Assembly: GCA_963799625.1 (NCBI GenBank)
Contig: CAWCXU010000013.1
Coordinates: 475,709 to 539,708, forward strand
Origin: an uncultured Actinomycetes bacterium
GTDB taxonomy: Bacteria; Actinomycetota; UBA4738; HRBIN12
DNA: 64,000 nucleotides
Direction: 5' to 3'
Made by a program: the position numbers and the translations under genes. The notes under the pieces were generated by a model. It had not been told where the DNA came from and did no database searches. It worked only from the letters and a program-made list of their open reading frames with translations. Shown in pieces: positions 5,147 to 33,437 of the stretch. Position 1 is the stretch's first letter. The number at the start of each line of letters is the position of its first letter.

Positions 5147-7235
5147 TCACGGTCGTGTCGCTCCCGTCGGCGCTGTCGGGACTGCGTGCGGCGTCGCGTC
5201 GTCGGCCACCTTCGCATCGGCGGCGCGCGCGGGCAAGGATCCGGTGATCGCGGTTCCGCGTCCCGGCATCGAGGCGACGGCGAGCGTGCCGCCGAGCGCC
5301 GCGAGCCGGTCGGCCATCCCCTGCAGCCCCGTGCCGTAGGAGGTCGCGCCGGCGTCGAACCCGACGCCGTCGTCGCTGATCCGGAACTCGAGCCTGCCCG
5401 GCGCCTCGCGCAACGCAACCGTGGCGGCGGTCGCACCCGCGTACTTCGCGACGTTCTGCAGGGCCTCGAGACACGAGAAGTAGACCGCCGCCTCAACCTC
5501 GGGCGGGTACCGGCCCACGCCGTCGGACTCGACCGTCACCGGGACCGGCGACCTGCGCGCCTGCGCGTCGAGCGCGGCGCCGAGCCCCTGGTCGGCGAGC
5601 AGGGGCGGGTAGATCCCGCGCGCGAGGTCGCGGAGGTCCTCGAGCGCCTGCTGCGTCTCGGACGCCAGCTCGTCGAGCATCGCGTCGACGCGCGCCGGGT
5701 CCTTCTCGAGCACCGATCGTGCCAGCCGCAGCTTCACCGCGAGCGCGACCAGCTGCTGCTGCGACCCGTCGTGGATGTTGCGCTCGAGCTTGCGCCGCTC
5801 CAGGTCCTGCGCGGCGACCAGGCGCCGGCGCGACTCGCGGAGATCCTCGAGCAGGCCGACGTTGCTGAGCACCAATCCTGCTTGCGCCGCGAGGCCGCCG
5901 ACGAGCTCGGCGCGCGGCGCGTCGATCGGATCGTTCGGCGGCATCGTCACCGAGAGCGCGCCCAGCACCTCTCCCTGGTGGCGCACCGGCTCGACGAGAT
6001 CGTCGTCGCCGAGCTCGGGAGCCTCTCGCCGGCCAGGCCGCGACGACGCGGCGGGTGCCGTCGGCGCCGAGCCAGACGCGCGCGCGCTCGGCGCCGACGC
6101 CTTCGCCGAGCACCCGCGCGAGTCGCGCCAAGACGTCGTCGGCGCCGTAGGTCTCGGCGAGGTTCTCGCCGAACTCGGTCAGCACCTCGTAGGGCGTGGC
6201 GCGCTTGCCGTAGACGATGCGGTCGGCCGTCCGCTGCGCCCACCGTCGGACCGGCTGGATCGCGAGCGCGACGACGGCTGCGGCGATCGCGGACGCCACC
6301 GTGCTCGACAGACTCCCGACGACCACGCTGATCCCGGCGACGATCGCGACGTAGACCACCGCGATGAACCCCGCGAGCACCGTGAACACGACCGTCTTGC
6401 GGATCACGACGTCGATGTCGTAGAGGCGGTAGCGCAGGATCGCCATCCCGATCGTGACCGGGATCAAGATGAACGAACCGATCGCGATCTTGGAGACCCA
6501 GTCGTTCCAGTTCGATGTGTCGGTGCCGAACAGCAGCTCGGGGATGAAGGCGAACACGTACGACGCGGCGATGATCCCCGCCGCCCAGGCAAGCCACTTC
6601 AGCTGCTGACGCTCGATCGGATCGGTGGCGCGCCGCAGGCGCCGGATGATCGCGACCGCTCCCCCGACGACGACCAGCGGCGCGAAGATCGTCACGATGT
6701 AGATCCAGCCGCCGAGCGCATCGAGTGCATGCAGCCCCAAGGGGTTCTCGATCTCGGGATGCCCGATGTCGCCGAAGGTGCCCGGGCCGAACAGGACGGC
6801 GAGCGACAACACCACGAGGCCCACGGCGCAGGTCCAGGCGAACCAGCGCCACCGCGGCGAGGGCAGGTGCCCGTCGGGGAACAACAGCAGGAGGAAGCCC
6901 GAGATGCCGATGAACGGCACCCAGGTCGGCTCCGAGAGTGCGAGCCCGACCCCCGCCCCGGGGAGCCCCTTCGCGAGGGCGTACTCGGCGTAGTCCTGGA
7001 ACGGGAGCGTCACCACGAACCCCATCCCGAGCATCAGCCAGGCGAGCGTGGTGCGCGGCCGCTTGTGCAGCACGACGATGGCCGTGACCGGGAACGCCAG
7101 GAGGATCACGGCGAACCCCCAGTCGGTATGGAAGCCGCTGGCCTGGTCGAGGGAGATGCTCACGGCGCCGCTAAGCACCATGAGCCCGAAGATCGACCAG
7201 GCGAGGCGGCGCAAACCTCCGTCGGAGATGGTCAT
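5147..7235 (-). pseudogene. Sensor histidine kinase paralogue A (multi-TM sensor + GAF-like + HisKA_3 + HATPase_c), interrupted by a +1/-2 frameshift near 6025. It may be a genuine pseudogene or an assembly indel.
   Basis: N-terminal part (MTISDGG...RYRLYDIDVVIRKT...ARVWLGADGTRRVVAAWPA) is in the frame of ORF 5493..7580(-). The C-terminal part (EAPELGDDDLVEPVRHQGEVLGAL...IHDGSQQQLVAL H-box, HATPase G-boxes) is in the frame of ORF 5147..5986(-). Alignment to intact paralogues HK-B/C/D shows equal length across the junction, so a single extra base (…ccggcgAgaggctccc…) is the likely cause. ATG at 7235 overlaps the stop of the upstream RR gene (ATGA). Confidence 0.7.
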
Positions 7236-8512
7236 CGGCCCGCGACGAGGATCCGATAGACCTCGACCGGCTCCTCGCGACCCTTCACCGGCCGAGCCCC
7301 GATCGGCTCCGCGTCCTCGATCGACGCGGCGGCCACGGTGCTCGCGGAGGCGACGATCTCCCCGCCCGCTGCCTCGGACTGCAGCCGTTGCGCGATGTTC
7401 ACCGCGTCGCCGATCACGGTGTACTCCAGGCGGCCGCCGCCGCCGATCGCGCCCGCCATCACGACACCCGTGTTCAACCCGATCCCGACATCGAGGCGCT
7501 CGACGTCGTCGATCCCCCACCCCTCGGCGTTCAGCTCTCGTTGCCTGGCCTGCATCTCGAGCGCGCACGCGACGGCGCACCGCGCGTGATCGTCCCTCGG
7601 GACCGGCGCCCCGAACACGGCCATCACGGCGTCGCCCTGGAACTTGTCGATCGTGCCGCCGTGCGAGGCGACGACCTCGGCCATCGCCTGGAGGTGCCGC
7701 CCGATGACCTCCGCGATCTCGCGCGCGGCGAGCCGCTCCGACAGGGTCGAGAACCCGCGGATGTCGCTGAACAGCACCGTGACCTCGACCTCCCGCTGCT
7801 CCGCGATGCTCGCGTCCTCCTCGAGCCCGGCCACGACCTGCTGGGGCACGTAGGAGCGGAGGGTCTCCATGCGGGCGGAGCTCTGCACCACCGCGGCGTG
7901 CAGCCGCTTCAGGTCGTCGACGTTGCCGCTCTCCCCGCCGCCGGCCATCCGCCGGAACAGGTCGGTGATGCGACGGTCGACCGCCTCCTGCGTCGTGCCG
8001 AGCGCGGCCGCCATCTCCTGGTAGCCGAGGCCCTGGGCCATCATGTCGAGGACCTTGCGATCCTGCTCGTCGGCGTGCTGGCTGCCGGTCAGCCGCTCCG
8101 CGATCGTCGGGTCGACCACGCTGCCCCCCTCGTGCACCTGATGGATCGCACGCACGAGCTCGTCGCCCTGCGCGATCCGATCCTTCAGGAGGTAGGCGAG
8201 ACCACTGTGGCCCTCCCCGAGCAGCGCGATGGCGTACTCGGCGTCGTCGTGCGCGGAGAGGACCACCACGCCGGTATCGGGGTGCTGCTCCCGGATCGCG
8301 TGCGCGCAGTCGATCCCCTCGAGCTGGAACGACGGCGGCATCTTGATGTCGGTGACGACGACGTCGGGCACGTGTTCGCCGGCCGCCAACATGAGCGTCG
8401 GCGCGTCCGAGGCGACGCCCACCACCTCGATGTCATCGTAGGAGTCGAGCAGCGCGCGAACACCCTCGCGCACCAGCACGTTGTCCTCGCCGAGCACCAC
8501 CCGGATCGTCAT
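7232..8512 (-). CDS. Response regulator with REC + LuxR-type HTH + class III adenylate/guanylate cyclase (CYCc) domains
   Basis: REC motifs (VVLGEDNVLVREG, VVTDIKMPP, phospho-accepting Asp context). Degenerate LuxR HTH (DRKVLDMMAQGLGYQEMAAALGTTQEAVDRRITDLFRRM). Cyclase core (VTVLFSDIRGFSTLSE...GDAVMAVFGAP...GLNTGVVMAGAIGG...YTVIGDAVNIAQRLQSEA). ATG at 8512. Stop overlaps the HK-A start. Confidence 0.8.
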   Translation of the reverse strand: MTIRVVLGEDNVLVREGVRALLDSYDDIEVVGVASDAPTLMLAAGEHVPDVVVTDIKMPPSFQLEGIDCAHAIREQHPDTGVVVLSAHDDAEYAIALLGEGHSGLAYLLKDRIAQGDELVRAIHQVHEGGSVVDPTIAERLTGSQHADEQDRKVLDMMAQGLGYQEMAAALGTTQEAVDRRITDLFRRMAGGGESGNVDDLKRLHAAVVQSSARMETLRSYVPQQVVAGLEEDASIAEQREVEVTVLFSDIRGFSTLSERLAAREIAEVIGRHLQAMAEVVASHGGTIDKFQGDAVMAVFGAPVPRDDHARCAVACALEMQARQRELNAEGWGIDDVERLDVGIGLNTGVVMAGAIGGGGRLEYTVIGDAVNIAQRLQSEAAGGEIVASASTVAAASIEDAEPIGARPVKGREEPVEVYRILVAGR

Positions 8513-8529
8513 GTCGCCGCTCGCTCCCC

Positions 8530-9213
8530 ATGTACGATGCGGCCGTGCTGCGCATCGTGTTCGCCGAGGATAACTACCTGGTGCGCGAGGGCACCGCGGC
8601 ACTGCTGCACGAGGCCGGCGACGTCGAGATCGTCGGGACCGCTGCGTCCTACGACGAGCTCCTTGCGGCCGTCGCCGATCAGGCGCCCGACGCCGTGCTG
8701 ACCGACATCCGGATGCCGCCGACCGGCACCGACGAAGGCATCCGCGCCGCCCGCCAGATCCGCGCCGCCCACCCCGACACCGGTGTGGTCGTGCTCTCCC
8801 AGTACGCGGACGAGGCCTACGTCTACGACCTGCTGAAGGACGGCGCCGCCGGGCTCGGGTACTTGCTGAAGGAACGGGTCGCCGACCTCGACGAGGTCGT
8901 CCGCGCGCTGCACGAGGTCTCCCGCGGGGGCAGCGTCCTGGATCCCAAGGTCGTCGAGTCGCTCGTCGCGGCGAAGGACCGTCTCGCGCACTCGCCGCTC
9001 GCCCAGCTCACCGACCGCGAACGCGAGGTGCTCTCGTTGATGGCCCAGGGGATGAACAACGCCTCGATCGCGAAGGCGCTGTTCCTCACCGACCGCGCCG
9101 TCGAGAAGCACATCAACTCGATGTTCCACAAGCTCGGTCTCACCGAGGAACCCGACGTGCACCGCCGCGTCATGGCCGTGCTCGCGTTCCTGCGGGAGAC
9201 CGAGCTCGCCTGA
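8530..9213 (+). CDS. NarL/LuxR-family response regulator (REC + HTH_LuxR)
   Basis: IVFAEDNYLVREG...VLTDIRMPPTGTDEGI...GYLLKE; C-terminal LTDREREVLSLMAQGMNNASIAKALFLTDRAVEKHINSMFHKLGL. Divergent from the RR-cyclase gene with only about 17 bp between starts, so the true start may be the internal GTG at about 8545. Confidence 0.85.
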   Translation: MYDAAVLRIVFAEDNYLVREGTAALLHEAGDVEIVGTAASYDELLAAVADQAPDAVLTDIRMPPTGTDEGIRAARQIRAAHPDTGVVVLSQYADEAYVYDLLKDGAAGLGYLLKERVADLDEVVRALHEVSRGGSVLDPKVVESLVAAKDRLAHSPLAQLTDREREVLSLMAQGMNNASIAKALFLTDRAVEKHINSMFHKLGLTEEPDVHRRVMAVLAFLRETELA

Positions 9214-9215
9214 CC

Positions 9216-9623
9216 TCATTGAGCGCGCCTCGTGTCGACGATGTAGACGCTGCACGGCGCGTGGCGAAGCACCAGGTTCGGGACGCTGTCCTTCACCTTC
9301 CACCACGAACCCTTCGTGCCCCGGTTGCCCACCACGATGGTCTCGGCTCTAAGCTCTCCGGCGACCTCACAGATCCGCTCGGCCGCGTCGCCGCGCTCCA
9401 CCCGGGACGTGACGGACACGTCGGGGAAGCGTTGCGCGAGCTCCGCGAGATGCCGCTCGGGGTCCGCGGCCCGGCCGGGATCCACGACCGCGCGGAGATC
9501 GCCCTCGGGCCTGACGAGGAGCACCACCAGCTCCGCGCCGTTGGCCCGGGCGAGCCGCCCGGCCTCGTTCACCGCCAGGTCCGCCGCCGCCGAGGTGTCG
9601 GTCCCAACCACGATCGTCGCCAT
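9216..9623 (-). CDS. Universal stress protein (UspA family)
   Basis: MATIVVGTDTSAAADLAVNEA...ETIVVGNRGTKGSWWKVKDSVPNLVLRHAPCSVYIV. ATG at 9623 preceded by AGGAGG. Convergent with the NarL RR. Confidence 0.85.
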   Translation of the reverse strand: MATIVVGTDTSAAADLAVNEAGRLARANGAELVVLLVRPEGDLRAVVDPGRAADPERHLAELAQRFPDVSVTSRVERGDAAERICEVAGELRAETIVVGNRGTKGSWWKVKDSVPNLVLRHAPCSVYIVDTRRAQ

Positions 9624-9778
9624 CTCTGATCGCCTCCTGTCTCTGGGGCCACCGTAGGACCGCCGACCTGCGAGAACGACCGGGCGGACACCACGGTTCG
9701 CGGGTGGTGCCAGCACGCGCGGAAGGGTGGCAACCTCCTCCTTGGAGGTGCGTCCCGGCGCTGCCACCATCAGCCCGT

Positions 9779-11902
9779 ATGCAGCCCCAGGTAGCGACCC
9801 CGATGCCGGACACGATCCGGCCGGCTCCCTCCAGGCGTGCCCTGGCCTGGGCGCTGTGGTCGTGCGCCGCGTTCGTGTTCGTCGCGTCCCTCGCCTTCGG
9901 GTTCGCCAAGGGGCTTCCGACACCGCTGTCGACGTTCTCGGAGGGCGGCGCCTTCATCGCCTACGGTCTGGTCGGACTGGTGATCGCCCGACGGGAACCG
10001 CGGAACCCGATCGGTTGGATCTTGCTCGCGGTGTGGGCCAGCGTGTCGTTCGTCTTCGCGTTCGTCGGGACCTATTCGCAGTGGGCATCGCTCCACGATC
10101 CCAGCGCGCCGGGCGCGGTATTCGCGAACTGGCTCGGCAACTGGGCGTGGGTTCCCATCTTCGTCCTGCTCCTCACCTACCCGCTCCTGTTGTTCCCGGA
10201 CGGGAAGCTCCCCAGCCCGCGATGGCGGCCCGTGGGGTGGGCGGTCGCGATCCTCACGGTCGCCTGGTCGATGGCATTCGCCTTCGAGCAGAACGACTAC
10301 ACCAACGGGCTCGACCAGCCCGCCACCAACCCGTACGTGTCCCAGCGATTCGCGCCCGTGTTCGACGCCGCACGCATCTGGATCAGTTTCTTCGTGATCG
10401 CCGCGTTCGGCGCGTGCGTGGCCGCCCTCGTGGTGCGGTACCGGCGATCGCGCGGTGTGGAGCGGGAGCAGATCCGGTGGTTGATGTTCGCCGGGGTGCT
10501 GACGGTGGCATGGTTCATGCTGCCGCTCGATCACGGCAACGGTGGCGTCGCGGACTTCATCCAGGGGTTCGTCCTGATGTTGATCCCGATCTCGATCGGG
10601 ATCGCGATCCTCCAGTACCGCCTGTACGACATCGACGTCGTGATCCGCAAGACCTTGGTCGTCGGCGTGCTCGCGGTCTTCATCGGTGCGGTCTACGTCG
10701 CGGTCGTGGTCGGGCTCGGATCGTTCGCCGACTCACCGGCCTTACGGATCGCCGCCACCGCACTCGTCGCCGTCGCGTTCCAGCCGGTGCGCGACCGCGC
10801 GAACCGTTGGGCGAACCGGCTCGTCTACGGGGCGCGCGCGACGCCGTACGAGGTCCTCGCCCGGTTCGGTGATCGCGTCGGCGAGACCTACGCGAGCGAC
10901 GACGTCTTGCCCCGGGTCGCCCGCGTGATCGCCGAGGGGACGGCGGCGGCGAGCGCCGAGGTGTGGCTCCGTCTCGGCGACGAGCTGCGGCTCACCGCCG
11001 CGTGGCCGGTCGCCGGCGAACATACGGCGCTCGAGATCGCCGACGGCGCGCTCCCGATCGAGGCCGACCGGGTCGCGGCGGTCCGCCACCACGGCGAGCT
11101 GCTCGGTGCGATCGCCGTGCACAAGCGGGTGAGCGAACCGCTCACCCACGGCGAGGCCGAGCTGGTCGACCGCCTGGCCGATCAGGCGGGCCTGATCTTG
11201 GCGAACGCTCGGCTGACCGCCGACCTGGAGGCTCGGCTGGACCAGATCGCGGTCCAGGCCGCCGAGCTCCGCGCCTCGCGCCAGCGGATCGTCACCGCCC
11301 AGGACGAGGAGCGCCGCCGCCTCGAGCGCAACATCCACGACGGCGCCCAGCAGCACCTGGTCGCCCTGGCCGTCAAGCTCCGCCTGGCGAAGACCGCGGT
11401 CGCCGCCGACCCGGCGCGGGGCCGCACGATGCTCGACGAACTCGGCGGGGAGATCGACGACGCGCTCGATACCTTGCGCGCGCTCGCGCTCGGGATCTAC
11501 CCGCCGCTGCTCGAAGAGCAGGGCATCGCGCCGGCGCTCGCTGCGCAGTACGTGCGCTCGGGTCTGCCGGTCCGGATGGACGCCGACGCCACGGGGCGCT
11601 ACCCGATCGAGATCGAAGCGGCCGTCTACTTCGCCGCGCTCGAGGCGCTCCAGAACGCCGCCAAGTACGCGGAGGCGGGAGAGATCGCGATCGCGATCCA
11701 GCCGGCCGACGGCGAGCTTCGGTTCTCGGTACGCGACGACGGCGTCGGGTTCGACCCCGCGCGGACCGGTCACGGCAGCGGTCTGGCGGGTATCCGCGAC
11801 CGCCTGGCGGTCTTCGGTGGCGACGCAACCGTGGAGTCCTCACCGGGTAAGGGGACCGTCGTGCGCGGTCGCGTCCCGGTTTCGGGGGTGCGGACACGAT
11901 GA
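9779..11902 (+). CDS. Sensor histidine kinase paralogue B (6-7 TM sensor domain + GAF-like + HisKA_3 + HATPase_c)
   Basis: Within ORF 9704..11902(+). Likely ATG at MQPQVATPMPD (about 9779). Conserved paralogue motifs PRNPIGWILLA, LLFPDGKLPSPRWRP, LQYRLYDIDVVIRKT; H-box RQRIVTAQDEERRRLERNIHDGAQQHLVAL; HATPase (YFAALEALQNAAKYA, DDGVGFDP, GSGLAGIRDRL). Stop overlaps the HK-C start (ATGA). Confidence 0.8.
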   Translation: MQPQVATPMPDTIRPAPSRRALAWALWSCAAFVFVASLAFGFAKGLPTPLSTFSEGGAFIAYGLVGLVIARREPRNPIGWILLAVWASVSFVFAFVGTYSQWASLHDPSAPGAVFANWLGNWAWVPIFVLLLTYPLLLFPDGKLPSPRWRPVGWAVAILTVAWSMAFAFEQNDYTNGLDQPATNPYVSQRFAPVFDAARIWISFFVIAAFGACVAALVVRYRRSRGVEREQIRWLMFAGVLTVAWFMLPLDHGNGGVADFIQGFVLMLIPISIGIAILQYRLYDIDVVIRKTLVVGVLAVFIGAVYVAVVVGLGSFADSPALRIAATALVAVAFQPVRDRANRWANRLVYGARATPYEVLARFGDRVGETYASDDVLPRVARVIAEGTAAASAEVWLRLGDELRLTAAWPVAGEHTALEIADGALPIEADRVAAVRHHGELLGAIAVHKRVSEPLTHGEAELVDRLADQAGLILANARLTADLEARLDQIAVQAAELRASRQRIVTAQDEERRRLERNIHDGAQQHLVALAVKLRLAKTAVAADPARGRTMLDELGGEIDDALDTLRALALGIYPPLLEEQGIAPALAAQYVRSGLPVRMDADATGRYPIEIEAAVYFAALEALQNAAKYAEAGEIAIAIQPADGELRFSVRDDGVGFDPARTGHGSGLAGIRDRLAVFGGDATVESSPGKGTVVRGRVPVSGVRTR

Positions 11903-13884
11903 GGCGAACGCTCGCCATCGCGATCCCGATCGCCTCGGTCGCCCTGCTGCTCGCCGGCGGGACCCTCGAGCGCTCGCCCGGTGACCTGATGTGGGTGCCG
12001 CTCGTTGCCGCGTCGACCGGTGTCGGCGCGCTGCTGTGGTACCGGCGAGCCGGACGGGCGCTCGGCCCGTTGTTCGCGTTCGTCGGCGCATCGGTCGCGC
12101 TCGACGTCGCGCTCTCGGGATACGTGCACGAGGCGGCGATCGACGACCTCCCCGGAGCGAACTGGGTTGCGTGGGTCTTCCAGTCGGCGATCGGGCTGGC
12201 CGGCGCGATCTACTTGATCCTGCAGCTGTTCCCGACGGGGCGCCCGCTCACGCCACGATGGCGGGCGCTCGTGTGGCTCACGCTGGCCGCGATCGCGGTG
12301 TCGATCGTCGGTCCCGCGCTGGGCGTCACCGCCAACTTCACGCAGAACTTCCCGCAGATCACCCACCCGCTGCAGGTGGTCTCCCCGTCGCTGGCCGAGT
12401 CGCTGGTGTCGATCGGCGGCCTCGCGGGTGTGGTGGTGCTCCTGGCGTCGGCCGTCGAGATCGTGCTCCGTTACCGGCGCTCCACGGGGGTCGAACGCGC
12501 GCAGATGAAGTGGTTCACCGCGGCGAGCGCGGTGACGGCGGTCGGGGTCGCCCTCGGCGCGTTCCTCGTGCCGCAACCCGACGTGCCCTTCGCGCTGCTG
12601 ACGCCGTTGATCCCGATCGCCGCGGGGATCGCGATCTTGCGCTACCGGCTGTACGACATCGATCTCGTGCTGTCGAAGACGCTCGTGTTCGCCCTGCTCG
12701 CGGCGTTCATCACGGTGGTGTACGTCCTGGTCGTTGCGGCCATCGGATCGATCACCGGGGCCGGTTCGCTCCTCGCAACGGTGATCGTCGCGGTGCTGTT
12801 CCAGCCCGCGCGTGTGTGGGCGCGACGCTTGGCGAACCGCCTCGTCTTCGGCGAGCGCGCGACGCCCTACGAGGTGATGGCGGGATTCTCCGAACGGGTG
12901 GCCGATGCCGTGTCGACCGAGGAGGTCCTGCCGCAGATGGCCGAGGCCGCCGGCGCCGGTGTTGGCGCGGCCGAGGTCACGATCCGCGTCACGCTCCCCG
13001 ACGGCGGCGAGCGCGTCGAGCGGTGGCAGGGACCGGCCGCCGGGGGCCGTATCGCCGAGCCCTGGGTGACGACGATCGTTCACCAGGGCGAACCCGTCGC
13101 GACCCTCACGGTCACGAAGCCGGCGAACGACCCGCTCACGCCGGCCGAGCGCGGATTGTTGGAAGACCTCGGTGCCCAGGCCGGGCTCGCGGTGCACAAC
13201 GTCCGCCTCACCGAGGAGCTCGCGATCCGGCTGCGGGAGCTCGACGTGCAGGCGGCGGACCTGCGGGTCTCGCGTGAGCGGTTGGTGACCGCCCGCGACG
13301 CGCAGCGTCGCGGGCTCCAGCGCGACATCCAGGAGGGGCCGGAGCGCCAGCTGCTCGACATCGGCCGCGCGCTGGAGACGGTCACCGAGCCCACACAGCT
13401 CGACCCGCTGATCGAGCGCGCGAACGACACCCTCGACGGTCTCCGCGACCTCGCGCGCGGCGTCTTCCCGCCTCTGCTCGCCGACCAGGGGATCGTCCCG
13501 GCGCTCGAAGCACACATCCGCAAGGTCGGCGCGCACGCGACGGTCGACGCACCGGCGCTGGCGGGCCGCCGGTTCGACGCGGACGTCGAGGCGTGCGCGT
13601 ACTTCTGCTGTTTGCAAGCGATCCAGAACGTGCTGCGGCACGCGGGGAACGCACCGAGCCGCGTGCGGCTCGGTCTCGACGGTGAGGAACTGACCTTCGA
13701 GATCGCCGACGAAGGGCCGGGCTTCGACGTGGCACGCACATCGCGCGGCATGGGCCTGCAGATCATCCAGGACCGGGTCGACGCGCTCGAGGGCTCGCTC
13801 GAGGTCCGAAGCGACGCGTCGGGGACCACGGTCATGGGCCGCATCCCGACGGCGGCCCATGATCAGGTACGGGCGGCACGGTGA
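11899..13884 (+). CDS. Sensor histidine kinase paralogue C (same architecture)
   Basis: MRRTLAIAIPIASVALLLAGG...LRYRLYDIDLVLSKT...H-box-like ARDAQRRGLQRDIQEG (degenerate; an E sits where the phospho-His is expected, so it may be a pseudo-kinase)...HATPase FCCLQAIQNVLRHAG, DEGPGFD. Start and stop both overlap neighbours by ATGA. Confidence 0.8.
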   Translation: MRRTLAIAIPIASVALLLAGGTLERSPGDLMWVPLVAASTGVGALLWYRRAGRALGPLFAFVGASVALDVALSGYVHEAAIDDLPGANWVAWVFQSAIGLAGAIYLILQLFPTGRPLTPRWRALVWLTLAAIAVSIVGPALGVTANFTQNFPQITHPLQVVSPSLAESLVSIGGLAGVVVLLASAVEIVLRYRRSTGVERAQMKWFTAASAVTAVGVALGAFLVPQPDVPFALLTPLIPIAAGIAILRYRLYDIDLVLSKTLVFALLAAFITVVYVLVVAAIGSITGAGSLLATVIVAVLFQPARVWARRLANRLVFGERATPYEVMAGFSERVADAVSTEEVLPQMAEAAGAGVGAAEVTIRVTLPDGGERVERWQGPAAGGRIAEPWVTTIVHQGEPVATLTVTKPANDPLTPAERGLLEDLGAQAGLAVHNVRLTEELAIRLRELDVQAADLRVSRERLVTARDAQRRGLQRDIQEGPERQLLDIGRALETVTEPTQLDPLIERANDTLDGLRDLARGVFPPLLADQGIVPALEAHIRKVGAHATVDAPALAGRRFDADVEACAYFCCLQAIQNVLRHAGNAPSRVRLGLDGEELTFEIADEGPGFDVARTSRGMGLQIIQDRVDALEGSLEVRSDASGTTVMGRIPTAAHDQVRAAR

Positions 13885-16016
13885 CCGCGCGACGGATCGC
13901 GATCGGTGTGATCTCGGTCACGGTCGTGCTGTTCGTCGCGCGTTACGTGCTCGCCGTGTCCACCGGCAGCCTCTCGGATCAGTCCGGCCTCGCGTTCAAC
14001 CTGATCTACGGCGTCGGCGTGGTGCTCTTCTGCGCACTGTTCGTGTTCGTCGGGTGGTCGATCGTCACCCGGCGGCCGCGGAACGCGATCGGCTGGATCC
14101 TGTTGGCGATCCCGCTGATCGGTGGGCTGGCGCTGTTCTGCGGCGACTACGCGACGCAGGCGCTGAAGGTCGACCCCGGATCGCTACCGTTCGGCACCGC
14201 CGCCGCCTGGGTGGATCGCTGGCTGATCGTGGTGGTCCTGTGCAGCTTCATCCCGCTGTTCCTGTTGTTCCCGGACGGGCGGTTGCCCTCACGTCGCTGG
14301 CGACCGGTGCTCTGGGTCTCGATCGGGGCACCGATCGTCACGCTGATCGCGTTCGCGCTAACCCCCGGACCGATGACCGGCGCGTTCGCCGATCTCACCG
14401 GCGTCACCGTGATGAACCCGCTCGGCATCGACGCGCTCGAGGGTCCGCTCCAGACGATCACCCTGATCGGCGGGTTCGCGACCTTCCTGATGGTGTTCCC
14501 GGCGTGCGCCGCGATCGTCGTGCGCTACCGCGGGGCGACGGGCGAGGTGCGCCAGCAGATCAGGTGGCTCGCCTTCGTCGGCGTCGTGTTCACGGTCGAG
14601 CTCGTCGTCGGCATCATCGTCACCGCGCTCGTCGGGGACAGCACCCCGTTGGGCGATCTCGTGGGGTCGATCTTCTTCGCCGTGTGGTTCTTGACCCTCC
14701 TCGCCGGCATCCCGATCGCGTGCGGGGTGGCGATCTTGAAGTACCACCTCTACGACCTCGACGTCGTGGTGCGCAAGACCGTGGTGTTCGGCCTGCTCGC
14801 CGTGTTCATCACGGTCGTGTACGCGGCGGTCGTCAGCGGCGTCGGGGCGCTGATCGGCGGCCATGATGCGACCCTCTCGTTCGTCGCCGCCGCCGTCCTC
14901 GCACTGGCGTTCCAGCCCGCGCGGGAACGCGCGCGCCGGGTCGCCGATCGTGTCGTGTACGGACAGCGCGCCACGCCCTACGAGGTCCTGGCGGCCTTCT
15001 CCAGCCGTGTCGGTGAGGCCTACGACGCCGGTGACGTCCTCCCTCGGATGGCGCAGGTGCTGGCCAGCGGCACCGGCGCGACCTCGGCGACCGTCTGGCT
15101 TCGGGTCGGGGCCGACCTGCACCCGATCGCGACGTTCCCCGAGGGAGCCGAGCCAACCCGCGACCACGTGGTCGAGGTCGTGCACCAGGGCACACCGCTC
15201 GGGGAGCTCTCCGTGTCGATGCCGCCGTCCGACCCGTTCGGTCCCGCCAAGGAGAAGCTCATCCAGGACCTCGCGGCCCAGGCCGGGCTCGTCTTGCGGA
15301 ACGTTCGGCTGATCGAGGAGCTGCGGGCGTCGCGGCAGCGGCTGGTCGCCGCGCAGGACGAGGAGCGACGCCGGATCGAACGGAACCTCCACGACGGCGT
15401 CCAGCAACAGCTCGTCGCGCTCAACGTGCAGCTCGGCCTGCTCGGCAAGATCGCCGATCGCGATCCGAGGAAGGTGCCCGCGATGGCCGAACAGCTCCAG
15501 GGCCGCGCCGTCGAGGCGCTGGAGGATCTCCGCGACCTCGCTCGCGGGATCTACCCGCCCCTGCTCGCCGACAAGGGGCTGGCCGCCGCGCTGCAGGCGC
15601 AGGCCCGCAAGGCAGCGGTGCCGACGACGGTGGCGTTCGACGGGATCGGCCGCTACGACCGCGCCGTCGAGGCCGCCGTCTACTTCTGCTCGCTCGAGGC
15701 GCTCAACAACGTGGCGAAGTACGCCGGGGCGAGCGCCGCGACGATCGAACTCACGCAGCAGGACGGCCGGCTTCGCTTCACGGTCCGCGACGACGGCGCC
15801 GGCTTCGACCCGGGCGCCACCGCGTACGGCACCGGCCTGCAAGGCATGGCCGACCGCCTCGACGCGATCGGCGGGTCGCTCCACGTGGCGTCGTCGGTCG
15901 GAGAGGGCACGACGGTGACAGGAAGCGTGCCGGTCGGAAGCGCCGAGGCTCAGACGCTCGCGGCATCCCAGGCCGCCTCGAGCCTGTCCGGCCCGAACGA
16001 CGACTTGGGGATGTAG
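13881..16016 (+). CDS. Sensor histidine kinase paralogue D (same architecture)
   Basis: PRNAIGWILLAIPLIGG, LLFPDGRLPSRRWRP, LKYHLYDLDVVVRKT; H-box RQRLVAAQDEERRRIERNLHDGVQQQLVAL; HATPase motifs. The 3' end overlaps the convergent REC-only RR gene by about 67 bp. Confidence 0.85.
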   Translation: MTARRIAIGVISVTVVLFVARYVLAVSTGSLSDQSGLAFNLIYGVGVVLFCALFVFVGWSIVTRRPRNAIGWILLAIPLIGGLALFCGDYATQALKVDPGSLPFGTAAAWVDRWLIVVVLCSFIPLFLLFPDGRLPSRRWRPVLWVSIGAPIVTLIAFALTPGPMTGAFADLTGVTVMNPLGIDALEGPLQTITLIGGFATFLMVFPACAAIVVRYRGATGEVRQQIRWLAFVGVVFTVELVVGIIVTALVGDSTPLGDLVGSIFFAVWFLTLLAGIPIACGVAILKYHLYDLDVVVRKTVVFGLLAVFITVVYAAVVSGVGALIGGHDATLSFVAAAVLALAFQPARERARRVADRVVYGQRATPYEVLAAFSSRVGEAYDAGDVLPRMAQVLASGTGATSATVWLRVGADLHPIATFPEGAEPTRDHVVEVVHQGTPLGELSVSMPPSDPFGPAKEKLIQDLAAQAGLVLRNVRLIEELRASRQRLVAAQDEERRRIERNLHDGVQQQLVALNVQLGLLGKIADRDPRKVPAMAEQLQGRAVEALEDLRDLARGIYPPLLADKGLAAALQAQARKAAVPTTVAFDGIGRYDRAVEAAVYFCSLEALNNVAKYAGASAATIELTQQDGRLRFTVRDDGAGFDPGATAYGTGLQGMADRLDAIGGSLHVASSVGEGTTVTGSVPVGSAEAQTLAASQAASSLSGPNDDLGM

Positions 16017-16377: not shown

Positions 16378-17598
16378 CTACTGTTCGGATGAACCGTCCT
16401 GCAACGCTTCTCGCTCTTCCTTGCGCTCGCGGGACCCGGGCTTCTTGAGCGCGGCGGTGCGCGCGAGCCGTGCGCGGAGGTCGCGCGGATCGTCGAGCGG
16501 CGCCGGCGACTCCGCTTCGGGCACGAGCCGGTCCAAGACGTCGGTCGCGTCGTCGGGTCCGGCGACCGACTTGGCCGCGACGGGGGCCGGAGCCGGTGCG
16601 GGGACCACGACGACCTCGGGCCGGGCTTCGGGGTCGCGTCCCGCGGGGGGCGGCGGCTTCGAGGTCACGGTCACATCGTCGGCGACGACCGTGACCGGGT
16701 CCGACCGCGGCTTGGGGGTTGGAGCCGGCGTCTCGGCGGGCTCGTCGGCACGGGATCGACGCGGCGTGGGCGTCCGCTCGGCGGCGGGCTTCGCCGTGCT
16801 GCGCTTGGACGTCCGTTTCTTCGGAGCGTGATTCGAGCTGGTCGACGCGACCGCTGGCGCAGCAGCAGCGGCAGCGGCCGGAGCGACGGCGGGCGTGACG
16901 GCCGGTGGGGTCGCGGCGGCGGGCGGGGAGGCGGCGGGCTTGCTCGCCGCGGGCTCCACAAGAGCCGGCTTCGCGCGAGGACCGGGGGTCGCGCGCGTCG
17001 GCAGGGCGGTCGACGAAGGCGGTTCCGGCGGCAGGCCGGGCACGTTTCGCCCGCCGGTCCCGAGCGTGGTGAGCGCCTGTTGCAGACGCGCCTCGGCCTT
17101 CAGCCGCAGACGCTCGCTCTCGTCGAGACGTTGCTGCAAGCTGTCGACCCGCTGACGGACGTGATCGTCCTGGTGCTCGATCACGACGGCCCGCTCGGCG
17201 TCGACGATCGCGAGGTTCGGCGGCAGCGTCGCGGGATAGAACGGCACCCCGACGCCGATGTCGGCGACCGGCTCGCGCATCGACAACAACGCGAGGCCGA
17301 ACAGCAGGAGGAACGCGGCGGCCGCGACGATCCGGTACCCGTTCCAATCGTGGTGCACCTGCGCGAGAAGTGCCGCGTCGCTGACTTCGAACTCGGTCAC
17401 TTCAGGGCTACCGGTCGGACCGTCGATCTTCGTGTAGGCGTGCACCGTGGTCGGTCCCGGATCGCCGGTCGGCAGCCGATCGGTCACCACGAGCCGCGAG
17501 CCGCTCGAGAGCGCGCCCGCGATGTCGTCGTCGTTGAGGGCGGTGCCGAGCCGCAAGGGATCGGGCTGGAGCGAGGACGCGATCAGCAACCGGCTCAC
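16378..17598 (-). CDS. Hypothetical membrane-associated protein with a long Pro/Ala/Lys-rich low-complexity C-terminus. Possibly the 3' part of a frameshifted gene that continues from ORF 17408..17929(-).
   Basis: ORF 16378..17598(-) contains a TM segment (YRIVAAAAFLLLFGLALLSM), a coiled-coil-like stretch, then a PA-rich tail. The overlapping ORF 17408..17929(-) in another frame carries a second plausible TM segment (IWWPLAMVALVALVLTV). The gene model is uncertain. Confidence 0.3.
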   Translation of the reverse strand: MSRLLIASSLQPDPLRLGTALNDDDIAGALSSGSRLVVTDRLPTGDPGPTTVHAYTKIDGPTGSPEVTEFEVSDAALLAQVHHDWNGYRIVAAAAFLLLFGLALLSMREPVADIGVGVPFYPATLPPNLAIVDAERAVVIEHQDDHVRQRVDSLQQRLDESERLRLKAEARLQQALTTLGTGGRNVPGLPPEPPSSTALPTRATPGPRAKPALVEPAASKPAASPPAAATPPAVTPAVAPAAAAAAAPAVASTSSNHAPKKRTSKRSTAKPAAERTPTPRRSRADEPAETPAPTPKPRSDPVTVVADDVTVTSKPPPPAGRDPEARPEVVVVPAPAPAPVAAKSVAGPDDATDVLDRLVPEAESPAPLDDPRDLRARLARTAALKKPGSRERKEEREALQDGSSEQ

Positions 17599-19107: not shown

Positions 19108-21147
19108 TCAGCCGTGCTCGTGGTCGTGGCGCTCGTTCAGGGCCTTGTCGATCGCGGCCCGCACGTCGTCGAACACGGCCTCCGGCTCCCGCGAAGCGTC
19201 GATCACGACGAACCGCTCCGGGTGCTCCTCCGCGATCCGCAGGTACGCGTTGGCGACGGTCGCGAGGAACGCGCCGCCCTCCCGCTCCATCCGGTCCGGG
19301 GCGCCGGACGATCGAGACAGGCCGAGCTCGGGCTCGATGTGCAACAAGATCACGAGGTCGGGGAACAAGCCCTGCGTCGCCCACACGTTCAACGACAACA
19401 CGTCTGCTTCGCCGAGCCCCCGTCCCGACCCCTGGTAGGCGAGCGAAGAGTCGACGTAGCGGTCGCAGACGACGACCTTGCCCTCCGCGAGCGCCGGCCG
19501 GATCACCGATGCGACCGTCTGCGCGCGGGCGGCGGCGAACAGCATCGCCTCGGCGCGCGCGTCGATGGAGCCGGTCGCCGGGTCGAGCAGCAGATCGCGG
19601 ATCCGCTCCCCCGTGGCCGTCCCGCCGGGCTCGCGCGTCACGAGGACGGGGATGTCCTCCTCGCGCAGGTGCTGCTCGAGCAGCGCGATCTGGGTGCCCT
19701 TGCCCGCGCCTTCAACCCCTTCGAAGGCGATGAACGCTCCGGTGGCGGGTGGTCGTTTGAGTTTCGGCACGAGGGCGAGGGAGACGGGACGCGACAGACG
19801 GTACCGCGTGAGCAACCGCCGCGTGTTGAGCGCGGCGACGATGATCAGACCACCGGCGGTCCACAACGAGAGCCGCGTGCCCGACAGATCGATCCGCTGG
19901 CCGCCGATGTAGAAGTCCCCGCCTCCCAGCGCCTGCGCGATCCACGCGAACACCTGCGCGAGCAGCGGGAACAGGGCCAACGACAGGAACAGCACCATCC
20001 GAGACAACGTCGTGAGCGCCGCGAACGTGCGGCCGCGGTACTCGTCGACGACGTTCTCCTGCAGCAGCGTGTAGCCGCTCACCCACGCGAGCCCGCAGAA
20101 CGCACCGAGCCATACCGTGAACACGACGGTCCACGACAGGTTCGGCATCGCGGCCATCACGATCAGCGCGCCGGCCGCCGCGAGGAGCGACGACACGAAG
20201 ACGCGGTCCCGCTCGAGGATGCGGGCGGCGGGGTTCGCGCTCGCCATCCCGAGCGCCATCCCGACGCCGAAGGCCGTCACCACCAAGCCCCAGCCGGGCT
20301 TGCCGCCGTGGACCGTCGTCGCCACGAAGTCCACACCGACCGCGAGCACGGCCCCCACGGCACCGAAGGCGATCGCGATCCCGCCGGTCATCGCCGCCGC
20401 GATCGTGTCCTCGCGCAGGAACCGGACCCCGTCGCGCGTGTCCCGCCAGACCCTGGACAGGTCCATGCGCTCGTGCTCGGCCGGACGAACCGTGCGGATC
20501 GCGATGCCCGCGACCATCGCCGCCGAGAACAGGAACGTCCCGGCGTCGAACACGAGCGCGAGCGACTCGGGATGGCTCGCGAACAGCGGCACACGCGCGC
20601 TCATGCTCTGCGCGACCCCGTACAGCACCGCGAACGCGGCGCCGCCGACCGGCAGCGTCGCGTACGCGCTCACGAGCACGAGCGAGTTGGCGTTCGCGAG
20701 CTGGCGCCTCGGGACCATGTTCGGCAGCGACGCGTCGCGCGCCGGCCCCCAGAGCAACGACAGGCACTCGATCACGAACGACAGCAGGTAGATCGCCCAC
20801 AGCTTCCCGATGAAGGCCATCGACAGGTACAGGGTCGCTCGGCCGAGGTCGGCCACGATCATGATCTTCTTGCGGTCGAGCCGGTCGATCAGCGAGCCCG
20901 CGATCGGGCCGAACAGGAACGCGGGGAGCGTGCGGGCGAGCATCACGCCCGAGATCGCGAGCGACGCCGACGCGCCGCCGATGCCCTGCACGATCGCGGT
21001 GACCGCGACGAACCCCACCCAGTCGCCGAACGACGACACCGACATCGCCGCGAGCAGTCGCGCGAACGGGCCGTGGGTCAGCAGGTCGCGAAGCGTCGCC
21101 GGGCGGGTCCCGCGGAGGGCGGCGACCTCGTCGGTGATCGACGACAC
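19108..21147 (-). CDS. tmk: Bifunctional MFS transporter / thymidylate kinase (dTMP kinase) fusion
   Basis: N-terminal ~450 aa with 12 predicted TM helices of MFS type. C-terminal Tmk: FIAFEGVEGAGKGTQ (P-loop), REPGGT, DRYVDSSLAYQG. Sits between topA and holB. Confidence 0.85.
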   Translation of the reverse strand: MSSITDEVAALRGTRPATLRDLLTHGPFARLLAAMSVSSFGDWVGFVAVTAIVQGIGGASASLAISGVMLARTLPAFLFGPIAGSLIDRLDRKKIMIVADLGRATLYLSMAFIGKLWAIYLLSFVIECLSLLWGPARDASLPNMVPRRQLANANSLVLVSAYATLPVGGAAFAVLYGVAQSMSARVPLFASHPESLALVFDAGTFLFSAAMVAGIAIRTVRPAEHERMDLSRVWRDTRDGVRFLREDTIAAAMTGGIAIAFGAVGAVLAVGVDFVATTVHGGKPGWGLVVTAFGVGMALGMASANPAARILERDRVFVSSLLAAAGALIVMAAMPNLSWTVVFTVWLGAFCGLAWVSGYTLLQENVVDEYRGRTFAALTTLSRMVLFLSLALFPLLAQVFAWIAQALGGGDFYIGGQRIDLSGTRLSLWTAGGLIIVAALNTRRLLTRYRLSRPVSLALVPKLKRPPATGAFIAFEGVEGAGKGTQIALLEQHLREEDIPVLVTREPGGTATGERIRDLLLDPATGSIDARAEAMLFAAARAQTVASVIRPALAEGKVVVCDRYVDSSLAYQGSGRGLGEADVLSLNVWATQGLFPDLVILLHIEPELGLSRSSGAPDRMEREGGAFLATVANAYLRIAEEHPERFVVIDASREPEAVFDDVRAAIDKALNERHDHEHG

Positions 21148-25088: not shown

Positions 25089-27425
25089 TCAGACGGTCTC
25101 GGTCTCGCTGGTCGGCGTGCCCGACACCAGCATCGGCACCGAGGACAGCACCACGCGGTCCTCGTAGAGGAACAGCCGCTTGATGAACAGCGCGTTCTGG
25201 TTGTGCAACGGCAGCTGCCACCAATGGTTCACGATCACCTCGGGCACGATCACGTTGACCACGCTGCCCGGGTCCGACGAGTAGCGCCGCACCTCCTCGA
25301 GCATCGGCCCGGTCAGGTCGCGGAACGGCGCCTCCACGATGTCCAGCGGCACCCCGAGCCCGGCGTCGAACCACGCGGTCTCGAGCTTGTGCGCCGCCTC
25401 GGGATCGAGGTCGAAGTAGATCGCCCGCGTGACGCTCGCGTCCAGGGACCGCGCGTAGTTCACCGCACGGATCGTGAGGTCGTTCACGCTGGACAGGAAC
25501 ACCAGCGCGACCGTGCGGTGCGGGATCAGGGGCTTCCCGTCGACCCCGCGCACACCCTCGTGCGTGACGACGACGGGCACGTCGGTCACCACCACGTGCG
25601 GGATCCGAAGGAGCGACGCCTTGAGCCGCAGGAGATCCGACCGACGCAGCACGTAGGCGGGCAGACCCGATCCGACGAGCTCGGGCACGATCAGGTTCAC
25701 GACGTCGTGCGGGCCGAGATCCATCGACGCGATGGATCGTCGGACGCTCGCCGTCAGGCTCCCGGACCCGGCCGCCACGAGCGGCGGGGCACCGGCGCCG
25801 TACAGGGCCGTCCACTGCTCGGCGAGCTCAGCCGGCACCGAGGCGCGCGGGGTGAGCGCCCGCAGCGAGCGCGGGTGGAACGACCGGACGTAGCCGAGCG
25901 CCTCGGCGACCGCGGCATCGACGTCGCGGACCAGCAACACCACGTGGGTCTGCCCCGTCACACCCACCCGCTCGGTCCCGCGATGCACCGCCGAGCGGAC
26001 CCACGTGTAGTGGCGGTGGATCGCGTAGAACAGCGGCACGAGCAGCGCCATGATCAAGATCGAGAGCCAGGCGCCGTCCTTGAACTTCGACAGGATGACG
26101 ACGATCAGCACCACGAAGGTGGTGATCGCGCCGATGATGTTGATGACGATCGAGCGGCGCCACCCCTTCGCCGCGCCCTCGCCTTTGCGGCCCTCGGCGA
26201 GCCAGTGCCGCACCATCCCGCTCTGCGACAGCGTGAACGACGTGAACACGCCGACGACGTAGAAGTGGATCAGCGTGTTCAGGTCGGCGTCGAAGATGTA
26301 GATCATCAGCGACGACAGCAGCCCGAGCGCGACGACGCCGTTGGAGAACACGAGCCGGTCGCCCCGGTTCACGAACTGGCTCGGCATGAACCGGTCGCGT
26401 CCGAGGATCGAGGCGAGCCGTGGGAAGTCCTGGTACGCGGTGTTCGCCGCGAGGATCAAGATCGCGGCCGTGAACGCCTGCACCACGTAGAACCCGAGCG
26501 AGTTGTTGCCGAAGATCGCGACCGAGATCTGGGCGACGGCGGATCGCTCCTCGCTCGCGACGACCCCGTGCACGTGGGTCGCCAGGTAGGAGATCCCGAG
26601 GAACATCGTGACGGCGATCGTCCCCATGATCGCGAGCGTCGTCGCCGCGTTCCGGGCCTGGGGCCGTTTGAACGCCGGCACGCCGTTCGAGATCGCCTCG
26701 ACCCCGGTGAGAGCGGTCGCACCCTGGGAGAACGCCTTGAGCAGCGCGAAGACCGTGATCCCCGCGACCGCCGCCGGCGCCGCGATCTGCTCGGACGCCG
26801 GCACGACCGCCGGGCACCCGCCGAGGCACCGCACGGCCCCCACCCCGATGAGGACCAGGATCGACACGACGAACCCGTAGGTGGGGACCGCGAACAACGT
26901 GCCGGACTCGCGCGCGCCGCGGAGGTTCGCGATCGTCACGAGGGCGACGAACATGATCGACAGGACGACCTTGTGCTGGTTCGCCCACGGGAACGCCGAC
27001 CCGATCGCGAACACGCCGGCCACGATCGAGACGATCACCGTCATCATGTAGTCGAACAGCAATGCGGCAGCCGCGACGAGCCCCGCGAACGTGCCGAGGT
27101 TCTCCTTGCTCACGATGTAGGCCCCGCCGCCGCTGGGGTAGGCGCGGACGGTCTGCCGATACGAGCTCACGACGATCGCCATCAGCGCCGCGATCGCGAA
27201 CGAGATCGGCATCACGTACTTCGTGGGCGACGTCGTCGCGATCGTCAGGGCGATCAAGATCTCCCCGGTCGCGTAGGCAACCGACGACAACGCGTCGGAG
27301 GCGAAGACCGGGAGCGCGAGGATCTTCGGCAACAGCGTGTGCTCGAGGTGTTGGCTCGAGAACGCGCGGCCCACGAGGAACCGCTTCGCGAGCGATCCGG
27401 TCGAGGACTTGGCTTGGGCGTTCAT
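25089..27425 (-). CDS. KimA-family K+ transporter homologue (APC superfamily, usually annotated 'amino acid permease') with an enlarged, apparently duplicated C-terminal cytoplasmic domain (778 aa)
   Basis: TM core shares KimA/YdaO signature blocks: SDALSSVAYATGEIL, SYRQTVRAYPSGGGAYIVSKENLG, DYMMTVIVSIVAG, LTGVEAISNGVPAFKRPQARNAATTLA, LAANTAY, GVFTSFTLSQSGM, and C-terminal ...LHNQNALFIKRLFLYEDRVV. The cytoplasmic domain region occurs twice. Last gene of the HK1-RR1 operon (40-bp gap). Confidence 0.75.
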   Translation of the reverse strand: MNAQAKSSTGSLAKRFLVGRAFSSQHLEHTLLPKILALPVFASDALSSVAYATGEILIALTIATTSPTKYVMPISFAIAALMAIVVSSYRQTVRAYPSGGGAYIVSKENLGTFAGLVAAAALLFDYMMTVIVSIVAGVFAIGSAFPWANQHKVVLSIMFVALVTIANLRGARESGTLFAVPTYGFVVSILVLIGVGAVRCLGGCPAVVPASEQIAAPAAVAGITVFALLKAFSQGATALTGVEAISNGVPAFKRPQARNAATTLAIMGTIAVTMFLGISYLATHVHGVVASEERSAVAQISVAIFGNNSLGFYVVQAFTAAILILAANTAYQDFPRLASILGRDRFMPSQFVNRGDRLVFSNGVVALGLLSSLMIYIFDADLNTLIHFYVVGVFTSFTLSQSGMVRHWLAEGRKGEGAAKGWRRSIVINIIGAITTFVVLIVVILSKFKDGAWLSILIMALLVPLFYAIHRHYTWVRSAVHRGTERVGVTGQTHVVLLVRDVDAAVAEALGYVRSFHPRSLRALTPRASVPAELAEQWTALYGAGAPPLVAAGSGSLTASVRRSIASMDLGPHDVVNLIVPELVGSGLPAYVLRRSDLLRLKASLLRIPHVVVTDVPVVVTHEGVRGVDGKPLIPHRTVALVFLSSVNDLTIRAVNYARSLDASVTRAIYFDLDPEAAHKLETAWFDAGLGVPLDIVEAPFRDLTGPMLEEVRRYSSDPGSVVNVIVPEVIVNHWWQLPLHNQNALFIKRLFLYEDRVVLSSVPMLVSGTPTSETETV

Positions 27426-33360: not shown

Positions 33361-33398
33361 GGCCGCGGTCCGATCCACGCTCGCAACGATAGTCGCCC

Positions 33399-33418
33399 TT
33401 ACGGAACCCTTATCCCGC
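33399..33418. promoter_or_regulatory. 20-mer TTACGGAACCCTTATCCCGC: two half-sites (TTACGG / TTATCC) 11 bp apart, in the HK2 / kimA-like-2 divergent intergenic region. 17/20 identical to a motif upstream of kdpF.
   Basis: Direct sequence comparison with 38151..38170 (TTACGGATCCCGTATGCCGC). Confidence 0.35.
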
Positions 33419-33437
33419 GCTTCTAGCGTGGACCGTG

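Follow-up and report, generated by a model that had tools for sequence, protein, structure and literature searches.

A response regulator of uncultured Actinomycetota with a degenerate LuxR-type helix-turn-helix and a predicted class IIIb adenylyl cyclase in one chain

Receiver-controlled adenylyl cyclases and NarL-type response regulators are both already known. CyaC of Spirulina platensis and Anabaena (PDB 1WC0 and related entries), a class IIIb adenylyl cyclase, has a Lys/Thr substrate pair, and Kasahara and Ohmori (1999; cited in PMC1183210) are said to have found that its activity is raised by phosphotransfer to the receiver domain. Other class III enzymes are controlled differently: CyaB of Pseudomonas aeruginosa (3R5G) is regulated by an N-terminal membrane MASE2 domain, has no receiver and stands outside the two-component systems, while Cya2 of Synechocystis (2W01; engineered E488K fusion 6FHT) is a guanylyl cyclase with a CHASE2 sensor. 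NarL/FixJ regulators (NarL, DosR/DevR, VraR, LiaR, DesR) act via DNA binding, with helix alpha10 dimerising NarL-type domains on DNA. In Mycobacterium tuberculosis, Rv0386, Rv1358 and Rv2488c bring a class III cyclase and a LuxR-type helix-turn-helix (HTH) together in one actinobacterial protein. Here we describe a different combination, encoded in a 64,000-nucleotide stretch of an uncultured Actinomycetes bacterium (assembly GCA_963799625.1, contig CAWCXU010000013.1, positions 475,709 to 539,708; hereafter the window, with positions counted from its first letter). The gene at 7232-8512, referred to below as the regulator-cyclase, joins a NarL-type receiver, a degenerate HTH and a class III cyclase. 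We consider it likely that its product is a phosphorylation-controlled class IIIb adenylyl cyclase in which the HTH is an inherited part that serves as a structural or regulatory relay and not as a DNA reader.

The open reading frame (ORF) of the regulator-cyclase runs on the minus strand from an ATG at 8512 to a TGA at 7232-7234 and encodes 426 amino acids, as do its closest orthologues, which are 92-93% identical. A start at GTG 8602, which would give the longest ORF, was ruled out in favour of ATG 8512 because every orthologue begins with M(T/S)IRVV and because a divergent gene begins at 8530. A receiver comes first, then a sub-threshold NarL/LuxR-type HTH, a long helix joined by a cyclase transducer element, and lastly a class III cyclase, laid out as follows (all on the minus strand):

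7232-8512, minus: response regulator gene with receiver, HTH-like module and cyclase (ORF and translation, Pfam, orthologues)
8159-8506, minus: receiver (REC), residues 3-118 (PF00072 at E 1.8e-15, invariant residues, fold match)
8069-8158, minus: helix alpha6 and linker, residues 119-148, ELVRAIHQVHEGGSVVDP... (BLASTP, hhalign)
7943-8068, minus: degenerate LuxR/NarL-type HTH, residues 149-190 (sub-threshold GerE, profile matches, hhalign, AlphaFold2 model, fold search)
7847-7942, minus: Gly-rich loop (191-197) and long amphipathic helix (about 198-221) (helix in the AlphaFold2 model, column conservation)
7802-7846, minus: cyclase transducer element, residues 223-237, with the preceding LRSY (HMMER alignment to 6FHT)
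7253-7801, minus: class III cyclase catalytic domain, residues 238-420 (PF00211, PDB sequence matches, Foldseek, conservation)

Pfam recognises the two ends of the protein, with Response_reg (PF00072) at residues 6-110 (E 1.8e-15, 57.5 bits against a cutoff of 30.2) and Guanylate_cyc (PF00211) at residues 238-418 (E 1.5e-26, 93.5 bits against a cutoff of 21.9), and the motifs FSDIRGFS, GDAVMAVFGAP and GLNTGVVMAGAIGG are all found in the translation. The NCBIfam scan returned only names far below threshold (MctR/MadR, MctS). Pfam, the homology tests and the catalytic residues described below together bear out the order that a preliminary description, made from the letters alone, had proposed, namely a receiver followed by a degenerate LuxR-type HTH and a complete class III cyclase. 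Conservation by residue was counted over 81 distinct orthologues of the regulator-cyclase, and the identity figures for domains are mean pairwise identities among orthologues: 0.895 for the receiver, 0.733 for the HTH, 0.771 for the catalytic domain and 0.445 for the Gly-rich loop.

The receiver possesses the acid pocket Glu9/Asp10, the phospho-acceptor Asp55 (codon 8348-8350), Ser86, Tyr107 and Lys110, each of them invariant in the orthologues, and its fold matches those of NarL-family receivers with template modelling (TM) scores of 0.82-0.87 on the target. A profile match above threshold, the full set of residues and an adjoining gene for a HisKA_3 kinase are all found, as for two-component receivers, and judged by its residues the domain is best described as a bona fide receiver and not a pseudo-receiver. 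Helix alpha6 and the linker that follow are of the NarL-family type and nine residues shorter than in the neighbouring paralogue, seen as a 9-residue gap in BLASTP.

At the other end, the catalytic domain matches PDB sequences of class III cyclases (6FHT/2W01 at 1e-38 and 3R5G at 6e-32 in HMMER), and Foldseek gives TM scores of 0.83-0.88 to Cya2, CyaB and CyaC. Alignment to Cya2/6FHT and CyaB assigned Asp250 (in FSDIRGF) and Asp294 (in QGDAVM) to metal binding, Lys290 (codon 7643-7645) and Thr365 to substrate specification, and Asn372 and Arg376 to the transition state. Five of these six positions are invariant in the orthologues; the sixth, Lys290, is shared by 80 of the 81. The complete catalytic core claimed earlier is therefore present in all three classes of residue, including the substrate-specifying pair that could not be read in the preliminary description. 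A pseudo-cyclase was ruled out, as none of the six catalytic residues is missing and all are conserved.

The Lys/Thr pair defines the class IIIb cyclases, some members of which respond to bicarbonate. Lys290 and Thr365, the latter in place of the class IIIa Asp, are the residues found here, and the pair is identical to that in the CyaB sequence, which is deposited as an adenylyl cyclase. A product other than cAMP, that is, cGMP or another cyclic nucleotide, is brought to mind by Cya2, since this guanylyl cyclase is the top natural structural relative by sequence, and predictions of specificity from two residues are fallible. Yet Cya2 has Glu and Gly where the regulator-cyclase has Lys290 and Thr365. 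Lys290 aligns with Glu488 of Cya2, and the E488K exchange on its own is enough to make Cya2 an adenylyl cyclase (PMC5995499). In the orthologues, Lys290 is kept in all but one sequence and Thr365 in 81 of 81. On these grounds a guanylyl cyclase was rejected and the alternative as a whole appears highly improbable. Of the cAMP or cGMP output put forward in the preliminary description, the conversion of ATP to cAMP is thus the part predicted from Lys290/Thr365, and the use of GTP is disfavoured. The catalytic residues, the Lys290/Thr365 pair, the transducer alignment and the fold match therefore lead us to predict a catalytically competent class IIIb cyclase that makes cAMP.

The middle of the protein is less readily named. 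With the hidden Markov models alone one would conclude that there is no HTH, for all models stay below their cutoffs: GerE scores 13.5 bits against 23.5 and Sigma70_r4_2 19.9 bits, and among 21 diverse family members (GerE scores of 13.5-15.9 bits) none reaches the GerE cutoff. Pairwise, profile-sequence, profile-profile and fold comparisons overrule that conclusion, as each of them shows a NarL-type HTH. Residues 1-189 are 45% identical (BLASTP, E 3e-54) to the divergent canonical regulator at 8530-9213, through the end of the recognition helix. A family profile of residues 118-240 matches DosR at 7.9e-9 among PDB sequences, as well as DesR, VraR and NarL, and it also finds isolated DNA-binding domains, those of NarL (C-terminal domain, 1.7e-5) and DosR. 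In hhalign, the comparison with orthologues of the neighbouring regulator gave a probability of 98.5% (E 3.5e-15) and covered alpha6 to alpha9, leaving alpha10 unaligned. An AlphaFold model of residues 1-237 has a predicted TM score (pTM) of 0.73 and a predicted local distance difference test score (pLDDT) of 86-89 in the HTH, whose helices are predicted at 149-159, 164-171 and 175-189/191. The best PDB matches of this model are full-length DesR, VraR, LiaR, ChrA, RcsB and NarL, with 184-212 columns aligned. By homology and in the model, the region is consequently regarded as a genuine NarL/LuxR-type domain. Among the marks of the NarL/FixJ family, then, homology from alpha6 to alpha9 is found, whereas a GerE score above threshold, basic contact residues and alpha10 are lacking.

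Does this domain still read DNA? The bases are contacted by lysines K179/K182 in DosR and K188/K192 in NarL. In the profile alignment, the equivalents of the former are Glu176/Asp179 and those of the latter Asp179/Thr183, and D156, E176 and D179 show little or no variation among the orthologues. In turn, the arginines of the recognition helix vary: position 180 is Arg in 58 orthologues, Gly in 12 and Ser in 7; position 181 Arg in 41 and Gln in 38; position 187 Arg in 52 and Gly in 10; position 188 Arg in 60 and Gly in 14. The mean net charge of the HTH over the orthologues is -2.9, compared with about 0 in the canonical paralogue, and the paralogue shows the reverse order of conservation (receiver 0.79, HTH 0.876, alpha10 0.926), its recognition helix TERAVEKHINSLFHKL being near-invariant across 76 orthologue sequences. 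In distant subfamilies of the regulator-cyclase (P0128, P0130, P0204) the first two turns of the recognition helix hold no basic residue (TPEAVADAVEELF), and one relative (P0132) has no HTH at all, alpha6 being joined straight to the transducer element.

Several observations weigh against a loss of DNA binding. The copy in the window has the least acidic HTH in the family, with a net charge of 0, and retains Arg180, Arg181, Arg187 and Arg188, so that it may still bind DNA weakly or in a non-canonical way. The canonical paralogue likewise has Glu at the position of NarL K188 and nevertheless a normal Pfam GerE score, for which reason Glu there is not diagnostic alone. Moreover, the HTH fold is kept under purifying selection. 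A bifunctional protein, at once transcription factor and cyclase with both activities under the control of Asp55 phosphorylation, would draw on these points, as on the identity within the HTH and its many invariant surface residues. They are outweighed in our assessment by the variability of the basic residues beside invariant acidic ones, the negative mean charge, the GerE scores of the 21 members, the missing alignment of alpha10, and the distant members with an acidic recognition helix or without the domain; we regard bifunctionality as quite unlikely. Simultaneous DNA binding, which the preliminary description had raised with reserve, is accordingly disfavoured, given contact positions that are acidic or variable and a domain that is net negative. 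Judged from these residues, the HTH probably no longer reads DNA.

The domain must nonetheless be constrained for something, as its conservation is on par with that of the catalytic domain and many of its polar surface residues are invariant; most simply, this would reflect packing against the receiver or transmission of the signal. The best reading of the alignments is that the HTH is no longer constrained to read DNA, and that purifying selection maintains it for a role as a relay, be it structural or allosteric. Two other roles can be pictured for the LuxR-type module as a working part. It might make the protein a DNA-binding transcription factor that synthesises cAMP where it is bound, which seems rather improbable. 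Alternatively, it may be an obligatory allosteric clamp, with a closed NarL-like REC-HTH arrangement that keeps the two halves of the cyclase dimer separated for as long as Asp55 lacks its phosphate; if true, this would be a previously undescribed coupling of a receiver to a class III cyclase.

To return to the relay, its proposed path would run through the segment between the HTH and the enzyme. The Gly-rich loop at 191-197 is the least conserved segment of the protein. It is followed by the long amphipathic helix, which continues into the transducer element and contains a conserved KRLHAAVV motif; of its residues, His205, Ala207 and Val208 do not vary at all, and Leu204 is kept in 74 of 81 orthologues. 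AlphaFold2 predicts a helix at 196-221 with low confidence (pLDDT about 50); the arrangement of the domains and this helix, at a pLDDT of about 35-55, are a further weakness of the relay reading. From its sequence and the model, the helix is likely a dimerising signalling helix. The HMMER alignment to 6FHT begins at query residue 216 and pairs ETLRSYVPQQVVAGL with NTFGRYLTDQVVATL, so that ETLRSYVPQQVVAGL of the regulator-cyclase aligns with the FGRY-containing transducer element of Cya2, an element described in PMC5995499.

The following course of events is conceivable. The regulator-cyclase would form one of two output branches in a multi-kinase two-component cluster, in which the kinase HK-A, and probably also HK-B and HK-D, would phosphorylate Asp55 of the NarL-type receiver. 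A change in receiver conformation or dimerisation would then pass through alpha6, the three-helix LuxR-type module and the amphipathic helix to the transducer element, which would set the geometry of the homodimeric catalytic domain and thereby the conversion of ATP to cAMP, with phosphorylation presumably acting as the activating step.

The genes that would supply the signal lie on both sides of the regulator-cyclase:

7232-7235, minus: ATGA, the stop codon of the regulator-cyclase overlapping the start codon of HK-A (sequence)
5147-7235, minus: HK-A, a multi-pass membrane sensor with a GAF-like region, HisKA_3 and HATPase_c (tblastn, DNA alignment, Pfam on the C-terminal half)
8530-9213, plus: canonical NarL-type response regulator with receiver and GerE (Pfam GerE, 54 bits)
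9216-9623, minus: universal stress protein, adjoining the regulator pair in a conserved gene order (Pfam Usp)
9704-16016, plus: HK-B (9704-11902), HK-C (11899-13884, lacking the His) and HK-D (13881-16016) (Pfam, tblastn, H-box alignment)

The ATGA coupling of the regulator-cyclase to HK-A, noted previously, is real and recurs among related loci, about 30 of 85 of which show an (A/G)TGA overlap together with an uninterrupted ORF of about 677-722 amino acids. NarL-type receivers are usually paired with HisKA_3 kinases. HK-B, HK-C and HK-D are paralogues of HK-A (36-49% identity in tblastn) and share its type of sensor, an uncharacterised multi-pass membrane and GAF-like region, with a HisKA_3 core. 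In the H-box alignment, HK-A and HK-B possess a near-identical helix after the phospho-His, from which it follows that several kinases may feed both regulators. HK-C has RDIQEG where HK-A, HK-B and HK-D have RNIHDG, the phospho-acceptor His being replaced by Gln, and no HisKA_3 match was obtained with Pfam in HK-C (11899-13884) or in its orthologues (L002 141-2126, L004 2341-4449); by sequence it would be a conserved His-less pseudo-kinase within the kinase array.

The state of HK-A speaks against a kinase-driven enzyme, since in the window the gene carries a 1-nucleotide indel at about 6025-6030 that places its halves in different frames. With the intact 694-residue orthologue of locus L002 as tblastn query, the match, at 80-83% identity, moves to the following frame partway along, with residues 1-402 before the switch and 404-692 beyond it. 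HK-A is also fragmented in several related loci. These breaks would suit a cyclase that is constitutive or otherwise regulated, one that receives no signal through its receiver from a broken kinase and whose activity is set by expression or by a ligand such as bicarbonate. Yet HK-A is intact (693-698 amino acids) in the closest relatives L002, L006, L007 and L008, HK-B differs very little from HK-A in the helix that follows the phospho-His, the receiver residues are all invariant, and the receiver is the best conserved part of the protein. In addition, single-base frameshifts split kdpA (about 39300-39500; Pfam positions 306/307) and kdpB (40075-42726, kdpB/kdpC) in the same window, because of which the break in HK-A is more likely an assembly indel than the mark of a pseudogene. 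We therefore hold control without the receiver to be very unlikely and retain phosphorylation as the probable switch. HK-A is intact in short-read assemblies of relatives. The window as a whole may be indel-prone, and the breaks in HK-A, kdpA and kdpB technical.

The N-terminal half of the regulator-cyclase has its closest paralogue in the divergent regulator at 8530-9213. The start codons of the two genes are 17 bp apart (8513-8529), and in most of more than 80 related loci the gap measures 14-41 bp, with a mode of 17. The promoter of each gene should therefore lie inside the coding sequence of the other, and the two transcripts should overlap at their 5' ends. The universal stress protein beyond has its best PDB match in 5AHW (3.3e-7), the cAMP-bound universal stress protein of M. 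smegmatis, followed by Rv1636, and is by similarity a possible cAMP binder; in place of the GNVG-x9-GS of Rv1636 it shows GNRG-x9-DS. No gene for a cyclic nucleotide-binding receptor was found among about 45 ORFs of the window that were scanned. The gene order, with the HK-D/HK-C/HK-B side, the universal stress protein and the canonical regulator, then divergently the regulator-cyclase and HK-A, and a USP-ABC1 kinase beyond, recurs in L001, L002 and L004/L005 (from soil and other metagenomes), the related loci for which gene calls were inspected.

Relatives of the regulator-cyclase were detected in at least 199 GTDB species genomes, essentially all of them metagenome-assembled genomes of uncultured Actinomycetota, and the 80 loci that were kept are 70-92% identical to it over essentially the full length. 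The ORF and its architecture are not a chance match, and the family is real, uncharacterised and lineage-wide. Among 1.84 billion representatives of 50%-identity clusters, the full architecture is present in a handful (P0121, P0127, P0128, P0130, plus fragments). The combination had been called uncommon, which agrees with the small number of clusters but not with its near-universal presence within its own lineage. Candidates with other outputs behind the REC-HTH module (P0175, P0226, P0230, P0201 and others) turned out to be frameshifted calls with out-of-frame tails. In a distant subfamily (P0132, P0128, P0130, P0204), Gln replaces the substrate Lys (MQFVGD), which resembles the Gln/Asn pair of Rv0386. 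P0128 has an additional C-terminal receiver.

The same cyclase also occurs in one-component proteins. In P0139, a sensor of the kinase type (40% identity, 2e-71) is fused to it (60% identity, 8e-71). In P0137 and P0143, as in P0139 (loci L086 and L087), the membrane and GAF-like sensor of HK-A to HK-D is joined directly to this cyclase subfamily. These sensor-cyclases are the fused counterpart of the two-component route, and because they fuse sensor to cyclase, the sensor type appears functionally linked to a cAMP output. The regulator-cyclase itself is best explained as having arisen when the neighbouring NarL-type regulator was duplicated and one copy became fused to a cyclase.

Elsewhere in the window, one ORF of 679 amino acids (19108-21147, minus) combines a major facilitator superfamily transporter (residues 32-384) with a thymidylate kinase (residues 475-661). 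Three paralogous DUF4118-HisKA-HATPase kinases resembling the C-terminal half of KdpD (28146-29627, 31972-33465 and 36588-38087, all minus) flank the kdp operon together with a separate ORF containing KdpD-N and USP domains (43039-44226, minus), and two long genes resembling those of amino-acid permeases lie near the operon (25089-27425 and 33435-35891). Two large ORFs (15-2744, plus, and 16378-17598, minus) have a coding-like GC content at third codon positions and gave no Pfam or NCBIfam match.

This family amounts to a natural experiment on how a domain is exapted, with a canonical paralogue 17 bp away as internal control, and the one-component sensor-cyclases and the version without the HTH complement the comparison. 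It is also a test case for the passage of a signal across an insert that is not a coiled coil to a cyclase transducer element. Conserved along with its neighbouring genes in uncultured soil Actinomycetota (at least 199 species), the module is probably a major path from a membrane signal to cAMP in a lineage without a cultured model. Its practical value is modest, as a candidate phosphorylation-switchable cyclase.

In the literature searched we found no description of a protein with receiver, LuxR-type HTH and cyclase. A 2012 census of actinobacterial LuxR architectures holds cyclase-LuxR combinations of the Rv0386 type only. Automated JGI (Joint Genome Institute) names already read 'class 3 adenylate cyclase / DNA-binding NarL/FixJ family response regulator'. 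The known systems each share one portion of the regulator-cyclase. CyaC matches its catalytic domain in sequence, fold and substrate pair, but is a large hybrid that carries GAF, a kinase and two receivers on a single polypeptide; its receiver belongs to a type other than that of NarL and is not separated from the cyclase by an HTH. CyaB can be aligned across 184 residues (E 6e-32), with the same residues at the six functional positions and Foldseek TM scores of 0.84-0.88 for the catalytic domain, and differs in its mode of regulation. Cya2, the top sequence match (1e-38), is alike even in the transducer element, yet departs at the Glu/Gly specificity positions and in its CHASE2 sensor; it is the engineered Lys variant, an adenylyl cyclase, that the regulator-cyclase matches. 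The Rv0386-type proteins have the cyclase at the N-terminus and a canonical HTH at the C-terminus, with a large ATPase/TPR (tetratricopeptide repeat) region between and no receiver. In P0139, P0137 and P0143 the sensor is fused to the cyclase, and kinase, receiver and HTH are lacking. NarL/FixJ regulators, in turn, are homologous to residues 1-190 and similar in fold over receiver and HTH. They end after alpha10, whereas in the regulator-cyclase this helix is replaced by the long helix leading into the enzyme, and the contact residues are acidic or variable. The sequence comparisons thus suggest a protein that would work like receiver-controlled class III cyclases such as CyaC, with an N-terminal half that would be NarL/FixJ by descent; what is new is a NarL-type regulator that keeps its HTH and has a cyclase behind it.

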